Of a stretch of 4,727 nt of DNA, positions 1 through 741 are shown piece by piece; the first letter of the stretch is position 1; every line of letters begins with the position of its first letter. Where the stretch lies: IMG/VR virus record IMGVR_UViG_2609459839_000002; one strand, written 5' to 3'. The stretch comes from a virus. Lineage: Duplodnaviria; Heunggongvirae; Uroviricota; Caudoviricetes. The position numbers were made by a program, and so were the translations under genes. The notes beneath the pieces are model-generated. The model had not been told where the DNA came from, did no database searches, and saw only the letters and a list, made by a program, of their open reading frames with translations.

Positions 1-741
1 GCAGAGCGCAAGAGGGCGCAGCGAGAGAGGGAAAGAAAGCGGGAACAAAATGGCGATTGTCACGGCGCGTCACGAAATGTCACGCACATGTCACGACGAG
101 TCACGACAGATAAAGATACAGATAAAGATACAGATCAAGAAGATCAAAACACTATGGTCCATGGCGTAAAAAACGCCACGAACCAGGCAGGGGATGTTCA
201 GACCGTCAATCCTGGTCAGCCAGCAGGCACGACACCGGAAGCCGATTCAGCGTATGCGCTGAAAGCCGATTCGGGCGCTGTGCAGCAGGTGATGACCGCA
301 AGGCCGGAGCAATCACACCAACTGCAGCAGCCTGAAGCCGATTCCGCCATTCAGCGGGAAGCCGATCGGGTAGTCCCGGAAAACACCGGGCAGCCTGTGA
401 GACGAGTGGATTATCCGGATGTGTTCGAACAGGTCTGGCGGGAATACCCGTTGCGTGCTGGGGCAAACCCGAAGAAATCCGCTTTCAGTGCCTGGAAGGC
501 CAGATTACGCGAGGGGGTGTCACCAGAGGCCATGCTGGATGGCGTGAGGCGTTACGCAAGATACCTTGCGGCTACCGGTAAAACGGGAACGGAATTTGTT
601 CAGCGAGCGACGACGTTTTTTGGACCGGACCGGAATTTTGAAAACCCCTGGCTGCTCCCGGTAAGCGGCACGAACAACCAGCGTTGTGTGAATCATATTT
701 CTGAACCGGATACCGAAATTCCACCGGGCTTCAGGGGGTAA
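1..741 (+). CDS. Phage replication protein, 5'-partial, with DnaT-like (primosomal protein I) C-terminal domain. Frame is open from position 1; in-window candidate starts are ATG 88 and ATG 154.
   Basis: Frame 1 has no stop from position 1 to TAA at 739-741. The C-terminal tail ...NHISEPDTEIPPGFRG closely matches the E. coli DnaT tail ...[13 protein letters not shown] as I recall it. Upstream of that domain lies about 110 aa of charged, low-complexity linker (KDTDKDTDQEDQ...). Confidence 0.7.
   Translation, partial: AERKRAQRERERKREQNGDCHGASRNVTHMSRRVTTDKDTDKDTDQEDQNTMVHGVKNATNQAGDVQTVNPGQPAGTTPEADSAYALKADSGAVQQVMTARPEQSHQLQQPEADSAIQREADRVVPENTGQPVRRVDYPDVFEQVWREYPLRAGANPKKSAFSAWKARLREGVSPEAMLDGVRRYARYLAATGKTGTEFVQRATTFFGPDRNFENPWLLPVSGTNNQRCVNHISEPDTEIPPGFRG
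59..105. repeat. Iteron-like array: five direct GTCACG repeats starting at 59, 69, 79, 90 and 100 (10-11 bp spacing); candidate phage replication origin
   Basis: Direct reading: gtcacggcgc gtcacgaaat gtcacgcacat gtcacgacga gtcacg. One helical turn between copies, placing them on the same DNA face. Confidence 0.5.
108..149. repeat. Short tandem repeats next to the iterons: agataaagatac x2 (108-131), then agatcaaga / agatcaaaac (132-149) with two GATC Dam sites
   Basis: Direct reading of the sequence. A-rich repeated block immediately downstream of the iteron array, as seen beside iterons in lambda-type origins. Confidence 0.4.

Follow-up and report, generated by a model that had tools for sequence, protein, structure and literature searches.

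A DnaT-type C-terminal tail on phage replication initiators from modules without a phage DnaB: a candidate docking peptide for host helicase loading

How does a lambdoid prophage whose only replication gene encodes an initiator, with no helicase loader gene beside it, bring the host DnaB helicase to its origin? The question is raised by the window analyzed here, a 4,727-nucleotide (nt) stretch of a Caudoviricetes virus (IMG/VR record IMGVR_UViG_2609459839_000002). It opens with the C-terminal two thirds of the one replication gene in an E. coli prophage of lambdoid (Rac/Qin-like) type, and the encoded protein ends in a short tail, QRCVNHISEPDTEIPPGFRG (nt 679–738, plus strand), that resembles the extreme C terminus of E. 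coli DnaT and was recovered by phmmer, NCBIfam, BLASTP and HHalign. From the comparative sequence evidence set out below we propose, with moderate confidence, that this tail is a portable docking peptide that would link an origin-bound initiator to the host DnaB/DnaC loading machinery.

Family and position both mark the gene as a prophage replication initiator. Its 3′ part (246 codons plus the stop) occupies nt 1–741 on the plus strand, where frame 1 has no stop codon between nt 1 and the one at 739–741, and its 5′ 330 nt lie beyond the left edge of the window. A Rac/Qin-like lambdoid prophage in E. coli E275a carries the same DNA (99.9% identity) and the complete gene, which is 1071 nt long and encodes a 356-residue protein that PGAP names ‘phage replisome organizer’ (WP_074471877.1); the ATG at nt 88, from which a first-pass annotation of the window had read a 217-residue open reading frame (ORF), is therefore internal. 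The PHROGs family phrog_3729 (‘replication initiation protein’) matches the window ORF with an E-value of 1.5e-173 over profile positions 111–356 of 356. The N-terminal, Phage_rep_org_N-like (winged-helix) part of the initiator falls outside the window, and the match of PF09681 (Phage_rep_org_N) to the full protein is weak (E 0.081, 13.4 bits against a cut-off of 23.3, profile positions 1–118 of 121). In E275a the initiator follows a cI-like repressor gene, a cro-like gene and a YdaT-family gene, and the order is the same in the related phage Tritos, so that the window gene occupies the early-right-operon position after repressor/cro/cII-like genes. The initiator is common: the IMG/VR matches listed, 80 of 80, are near-identical E. 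coli copies (at least 96%). Downstream of it, we found no DnaC-like or P-like gene with Pfam, NCBIfam or PHROGs or at the E275a locus, which bears out what the first-pass annotation had said of the window. A replication module without a loader gene implies that the initiator must load DnaB via host machinery.

The last 13 residues of the ORF, SEPDTEIPPGFRG (encoded by nt 700–738), are identical to the C terminus of E. coli DnaT at 11 of 13 positions (our DnaT query sequence is 100% identical to PDB 9zbt_D), and the match is significant in sequence searches, in agreement with the earlier remark that the two ends are nearly identical. BLASTP of the window ORF against DnaT gave 15/25 identities with a pairwise E-value of 8e-08, phmmer against PDB sequences retrieved the DnaT chains 6aep, 2ru8 and 9zbt (E 0.0095–0.039), and the NCBIfam DnaT model NF002770 aligned its positions 156–179 to residues 223–246 (E 9.7e-4, 18.8 bits against a cut-off of 201). 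In DnaT itself (PDB 2RU8, 4OU6, 6AEP, 9ZBT) these last ~20 residues, RDVNxxSEPDxxIPPGFRG, are flexible. The DnaT orthologs listed, including that of the reduced-genome endosymbiont Buchnera, keep RD[IV][NT]x[IV][SP]xPDxx[IVT]PxGFRG, sometimes with 1–2 extra residues, and the motif common to DnaT and the phage initiators is a C-terminal RD[IV]NxISxPDxxIPxGFRG.

How far toward the N terminus does the likeness extend? The first-pass annotation had proposed a DnaT-like domain of roughly 100 residues and had named PF17948, the DnaT DNA-binding domain, as a model by which to check it. All DnaT alignments of the window ORF are restricted to its last 22–25 residues. PF17948 did not match the window ORF or the full-length protein in a Pfam search even at E ≤ 1, and in the same test it matched both positive controls, DnaT (3.7e-21) and the initiator of phage SPN1S (3.9e-18). 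DnaT residues 1–154 (the N-terminal oligomerization and PriB-binding domain plus linker) gave no alignment to the window protein, which does have an acidic linker, but one that is not homologous to DnaT's. AlphaFold2 modeled the last 121 residues (138-sequence alignment; mean predicted local distance difference test score 88) as a small helical domain and, after it, a tail that is not helical. In a Foldseek search of the PDB this model had no match at E ≤ 0.001, and none of its matches up to E ≤ 10 was a DnaT chain. With HHalign, the tail-bearing subset of homologs scored 97% against the C-terminal region of DnaT when the tails were included and 15%, over 28 columns, when they were not. Given the alignments, PF17948, Foldseek and HHalign without tails, the tail match is real but a 100-residue DnaT-like domain is unsupported, and the segment encoded by nt 679–738 is the only part of the window protein with significant similarity to DnaT, which extends over no more than the last 20–25 residues.

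The helical domain that precedes the tail (nt 409–660, plus strand; conserved pattern F..W..YP.R.G.N.K...A...W.AR...G......G..RY...TGK.GTE.V...TFFGP...W) is widespread in phage initiators, being common to thousands of them, and a long low-complexity linker leads into it; the helical domains of DnaD-like proteins (the C-terminal DDBH2 domain) and of the SPP1 G39P ‘replisome organizer’ are among the closest known systems. Four of the five testable features that define DnaT are absent from the window protein, and the one that it shares is the conserved flexible C-terminal tail, RD[IV]NxxSxPDxxIPxGFRG. It has no counterpart of the DnaT N-terminal domain and no detectable PF17948 bundle, it is about twice the size of DnaT, and its gene lies not in a chromosomal dnaT–dnaC operon but in a prophage early-right operon with a DUF977 gene next. 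DnaT and the window protein do both act upstream of DnaB loading. The window protein is thus an ordinary lambdoid origin-binding initiator rather than a member of the DnaT family. We also considered whether the phage had lately picked up the 3′ end of dnaT from its host, and ruled this out, since nucleotide identity over the tail is 46/75 with synonymous differences at conserved residues. That 29 of 75 nt differ from E. coli dnaT, synonymously where residues are conserved, implies that it is the peptide that has been maintained and that no recent copying from the host took place.

The tail also occurs far beyond this protein. A tblastn search with the tail alone found it in 40 phage records, and a back-translated pattern (PDxx[IV]PxGF[RK]G plus a stop codon) found at least 120 stretches each in IMG/VR and in species-representative genomes. 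It terminates initiators of at least seven architectures, all from Enterobacterales: a Phage_rep_org_N-like part plus the helical domain (the window protein); HTH_36 plus the window's helical domain (mEp460 gp43, which ends in YSQIPAGFRG); HTH_36 plus Phg_2220_C (including phage LLS); DUF1376 (Rac YdaU); Phage_rep_O (the Gifsy-2 initiator); a homolog of the lambda O C-domain (mEp460_ev081); and a genuine PF17948 bundle (SPN1S). Because it is present on unrelated preceding domains, the tail reads as an autonomous, portable docking peptide and not as part of the DnaT fold. From nt 679, the first codon of the tail, to nt 1205, through the DUF977 gene, the window is ~90% similar to HannyBb, PhiR42_1 and mEp460_ev081, phages whose initiator bodies are unrelated to the window's, and nt 679 is a mosaic junction placed at the boundary between domain and tail. 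The mEp460_ev081-type initiator shares the C-terminal domain of lambda O (SPSKLREKWDELV against SPAKLRDKWTQLE in lambda O; L004:2598-3563 and L210:187-1086 in our locus set). The lambda O ending, TNTDWIYGVDL, is replaced in the mEp460_ev081 type by the DnaT-type tail, a natural tail swap on the scaffold of lambda O.

Among the matches listed, the named tail-bearing proteins come only from Enterobacterales, and where phages of Vibrio, Burkholderia and Pseudomonas have a homolog of the helical domain, it is without the tail. Matches to the pattern outside Enterobacterales in the genome scan lie inside ORFs or end very short ORFs, and on account of that location we read them as chance. A separate set of high-GC loci (L296, L324, L325, L344, L362, L372, L399 and L400; those named are actinobacterial, e.g. 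Kocuria and Curtobacterium) contains an internal segment, GDSFTEG[VIL]GDPDxxVPGGFRG, that fits the tail pattern; not being C-terminal, it looks unrelated.

Which genes accompany the tail? In the 199 tail-bearing IMG/VR loci listed (2.13 Mb searched in six frames; 138 distinct sequences) there was no homolog of DnaB or of lambda P, and a DnaC-like gene was present in 78/199; prophage copies in the species-representative genomes follow the same pattern among the matches listed. The tail-less relatives of the phiP27 L17 type, which have the same helical domain, provide the counterpart: DnaC-like and DnaB genes come next in 72/73, and the initiators carry other C-terminal tails (SDKLTF or GFSEQDYG..NFNW). 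By these counts the tail marks modules that lack both a phage DnaB and a lambda-P gene. A simpler rule, that the tail goes with the lack of a loader gene, fitted the window, Tritos, mEp460, ev081 and SPN1S as against phiP27, but is ruled out by Rac YdaU, the Gifsy-2 initiator and Shigella phage 75/02 gp15, in each of which the tail is present and a DnaC paralog comes next. Among the tail-less relatives with this helical domain (phiP27 L17-like loci L211-L290; proteins P0076, P0083, P0089, P0104, P0139 and P0166) we also noted several recurrent endings (GAMSDKFGKSSDKLTF, SGFSEQDYGSTNFNW, HHGFxxRDY...DGTYAF and EPDGRF). Those that are acidic with a final aromatic residue resemble SSB-type tails. 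Such endings may be docking peptides of another kind, with partners of their own.

The DnaC-like proteins encoded next to tail-bearing initiators are close relatives of the host loader, with 48–50% identity to E. coli DnaC along their whole length, whereas the phiP27 loader is 32% identical with its N-terminal ~45 residues unaligned. Among the matches listed from the species-representative genomes, true dnaT is followed by dnaC in 53/53 loci, so the YdaU–YdaV pair of Rac mirrors dnaT–dnaC. Rac YdaU–YdaV, Gifsy-2 and the 75/02 gp15–gp16 pair resemble the window in being enterobacterial and lambdoid, with the tail on the initiator and no phage DnaB, and differ from it in the additional DnaC paralog. 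The SPN1S-type initiators and DopC are likewise phage-derived, initiator-like proteins with C-terminal elements of DnaT; DopC is an O-like protein in which HHpred detected a ‘DnaT Cter motif’ (Brezellec et al. 2017, PMC5509034). In contrast to the window protein, which has only the tail, these contain a true bundle of three helices (for SPN1S, PF17948 at E ~4e-18).

Two phages with such single-initiator modules are informative. The initiator gene of Tritos is 98.9% identical in DNA sequence to the window over nt 1–1179. In the complete 46.4-kb Tritos genome, homologs of DnaB, DnaC and P are absent, there is one replication gene, and the sole ORF with a Walker A motif is the large terminase. 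Tritos was induced spontaneously from E. coli LF82, forms plaques on MG1655 hsdR-, and has been propagated and imaged (PMC9928086). The initiator therefore suffices, together with host factors. The second is LLS, the experimentally studied prototype of the ‘O-only’ lambdoid phages, which make up 34/314 in a survey that describes their replication as ‘not yet understood’ (PMC12315714). Its O protein (gene 44; L415:6214-7068) is its sole replication protein and ends in GPVDTKIPEGFRG, that is, in DTKIPEGFRG. LLS thus resembles the window in having a single-initiator module without helicase or loader, and differs in its HTH_36 plus Phg_2220_C-type architecture; the portions of the LLS paper that we could consult do not mention the tail. 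Since this variant is missed by a DNA pattern that requires PD, our census undercounts tail-bearing initiators. For the Stx phages, all three Eru types (Table 1 of PMC8044961) include a helicase gene; of DnaT, primosomal proteins, helicase loaders and DnaC that paper says nothing.

The tail would act at an origin that probably lies within the initiator gene itself. Five direct GTCACG repeats spaced about one helical turn apart (10–11 bp), putative iterons, occupy nt 59–105 on the plus strand; they are all five of the sites in the 4.7-kb window, gathered within 47 bp on one strand, and shuffled sequences have a mean of 1.27 per whole window. Adjoining them at nt 106–141 (plus strand) are three tandem 12-mers, ACAGATAAAGAT, which are A-rich, with GC content down to 0.35, and encode an acidic TDKDTDKDTDQ linker. 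By analogy with lambda ori, which lies inside gene O, we assign these 12-mers a putative role as the DNA-unwinding element. Iterons plus an AT-rich element within the gene are a feature of initiators, and nt 59–141 as a whole is probably the phage origin, with a layout like that of lambda ori. Lambda also resembles the window in the position of its O/P module after cro/cII and in the ren-like gene that comes next. The difference is in how the helicase is obtained: lambda O ends in TNTDWIYGVDL and uses P to hand over DnaB, whereas the window has no P gene.

These observations suggest the following mechanism. The winged-helix part of the initiator presumably binds the GTCACG iterons, as lambda O does. 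With the initiator bound at the origin, its flexible 20-residue tail could then dock onto whichever host partner the tail of DnaT engages, the likeliest candidate being host DnaB in complex with DnaC or with a phage DnaC paralog, and host DnaB would thereby be loaded at the phage origin with neither a lambda-P-type loader nor a phage helicase. The tail is kept with or without a DnaC paralog, but in phages that encode a DnaB of their own another ending takes its place, which makes host DnaB, or a DnaB–DnaC(-like) complex, most probably the partner. How the PriA/PriB/DnaT preprimosome recruits DnaB/DnaC has been described as unknown (PMC13377028; PMC11087952), and our literature search turned up no assigned partner for the tail of DnaT. 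More tentatively, and with less conviction than we hold for the docking role as such, we suggest that DnaT might recruit DnaB6–DnaC6 to the preprimosome via its tail, and that helicase-less enterobacterial phage initiators might bring host DnaB straight to their origins with the same peptide, acquired by descent or by mimicry.

Several points weigh against this proposal. Our data do not separate DnaB, DnaC and PriA as the partner of the tail, and the literature search turned up no binding or genetic data on it. The authors of the cryo-electron microscopy (cryo-EM) structures suggest the N-terminal domain of DnaT, not the tail, as a possible recruiter of DnaB/DnaC. C-terminal truncation alters the oligomeric state of DnaT and its cooperativity on single-stranded DNA (ssDNA), so the tail could act in self-assembly. 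On the comparative side, the DNA pattern does not catch tail variants like the ones on LLS and mEp460, DnaB helicases were sought with a single DnaB reference, and non-DnaB helicases were excluded only by our own reading of the large downstream ORFs, which in the loaderless class look, from sequence motifs and with no database match, like ParB-like, DNA-methyltransferase and DUF968 proteins. These prophages are relatives that exchange DNA by recombination, so few independent events lie behind the association between tail and helicase genes, and the tail-less control is essentially one clade.

The first alternative, which we consider rather unlikely, is that the C terminus plugs the initiator into the PriA/PriB/DnaT restart primosome. 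Here the tail, with or without the helical domain, would bind PriA, PriB or ssDNA, the initiator would serve as a DnaT surrogate or a PriA recruiter at the opened origin, and DnaB would be loaded by the restart pathway. A tail that is common to DnaT, on a module without a loader, is what such a route would predict, and the restriction of the tail to Enterobacterales is in line with it, since PriB and DnaT belong to this clade. SPN1S and others do carry a genuine DnaT bundle along with the tail, and HHalign gives a weak collinear hint for a helix pair (AWKARLREGVSPEAML..YLAATGK against LWGVALREPVTTEEL..YWQAEGK in DnaT). The functional map of DnaT argues otherwise: ssDNA binding belongs to the three-helix bundle of residues 84–153 (PMC4132743) and PriB binding to residues 42–88 plus the acidic linker (PMC5778457; PMC13377028), both of which lie outside the tail, and the first-pass annotation, in ascribing both activities to the matched region, is at odds with this literature. 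Docking to PriA is ascribed in the cryo-EM structures to a hydrophobic interface of the DnaT C-terminal domain, with no role described for the tail. A restart route is also less economical for those tail-bearing phages that encode a close DnaC paralog.

The tail might instead serve self-assembly or DNA binding, helping the initiator to oligomerize or to form a filament on origin ssDNA, as it perhaps does in DnaT; this we judge unlikely. The DnaT truncations speak for it, as DnaT 1–161 forms dimers rather than trimers, and on ssDNA both the affinity and the cooperativity of DnaT 84–153 are below those of 84–179 (PMC4132743, PMC5778457). However, the occurrence of the tail behind at least seven unrelated domains fits poorly with a tail that packs on one fold, and neither its restriction to Enterobacterales nor its absence from modules with their own DnaB would be explained.

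A role in host takeover, in which the tail mimics DnaT, titrates its partner and shuts down host replication restart without directly serving replication of the phage, strikes us as improbable. The motif hardly differs from that of the host, and a dual role would be compatible with the data, but the tail is always found on a replication initiator in the replication slot and is absent when the phage brings a helicase, which is what a replication function predicts. Finally, a chance resemblance, or a functionless relic of recombination suggested by the position of the tail-coding segment at a mosaic junction with similarity to unrelated-initiator phages from nt 679, is very unlikely: the match is significant in three independent searches (phmmer, NCBIfam and BLASTP), the motif stands at the extreme C terminus throughout, it is conserved at the protein level despite synonymous divergence, and it reappears in different families and, as far as Buchnera, in DnaT.

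Annotation pipelines already name such phage genes ‘Primosomal protein I’. The tail explains that label, which is misleading for proteins like the window's. Our literature search found no description of the 20-residue tail as a separate portable motif, of its presence on many initiator architectures, including those of O-only phages, or of its exclusion from phage-DnaB or lambda-P modules. If DnaT and the phage initiators do both recruit DnaB through the tail, one peptide would answer two questions, that of the hand-over from the restart primosome to DnaB/DnaC and that of the replication of ‘O-only’ lambdoid phages; the sharing of the tail, together with its absence from modules with their own DnaB, offers for both questions a single short target that can be tested as a peptide. 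Should the tail turn out to bind PriA or to self-assemble, the comparative pattern would still want explaining.

The gene next to the initiator (nt 782–1204, plus strand) encodes a DUF977/LygF/Ren-like protein (Pfam DUF977, E 1.3e-32; phrog_142, ‘Ren-like exclusion protein’) and is not a helicase loader. In E275a the DUF977 gene (LygF/Ren-like) is followed by DUF4406 and DUF4752 genes and small ORFs; in the window, DUF4406 (nucleoside 2-deoxyribosyltransferase-like, phrog_355) and DUF4752 occupy nt 1201–1778, with overlapping stop and start codons. A DUF4752 gene lies downstream in SPN1S as well, likewise a phage with a tail-bearing initiator. On the minus strand, nt 2129–3612 hold two overlapping AT-rich genes, for a 184-residue predicted membrane protein (phrog_15250) and a 310-residue protein (phrog_15676), neither of which has a Pfam or NCBIfam match; the pair looks like a moron or defense-type cassette that has entered the nin-like region. 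At nt 3949 the window ceases to resemble the E275a-type prophage, in which hokD comes next. In the remaining segment (nt 3950–4727), a 173-residue IS3-family transposase ORF-A (HTH_28/HTH_29) begins at nt 3995, and from these two observations the window's prophage appears to be interrupted by an insertion sequence element.

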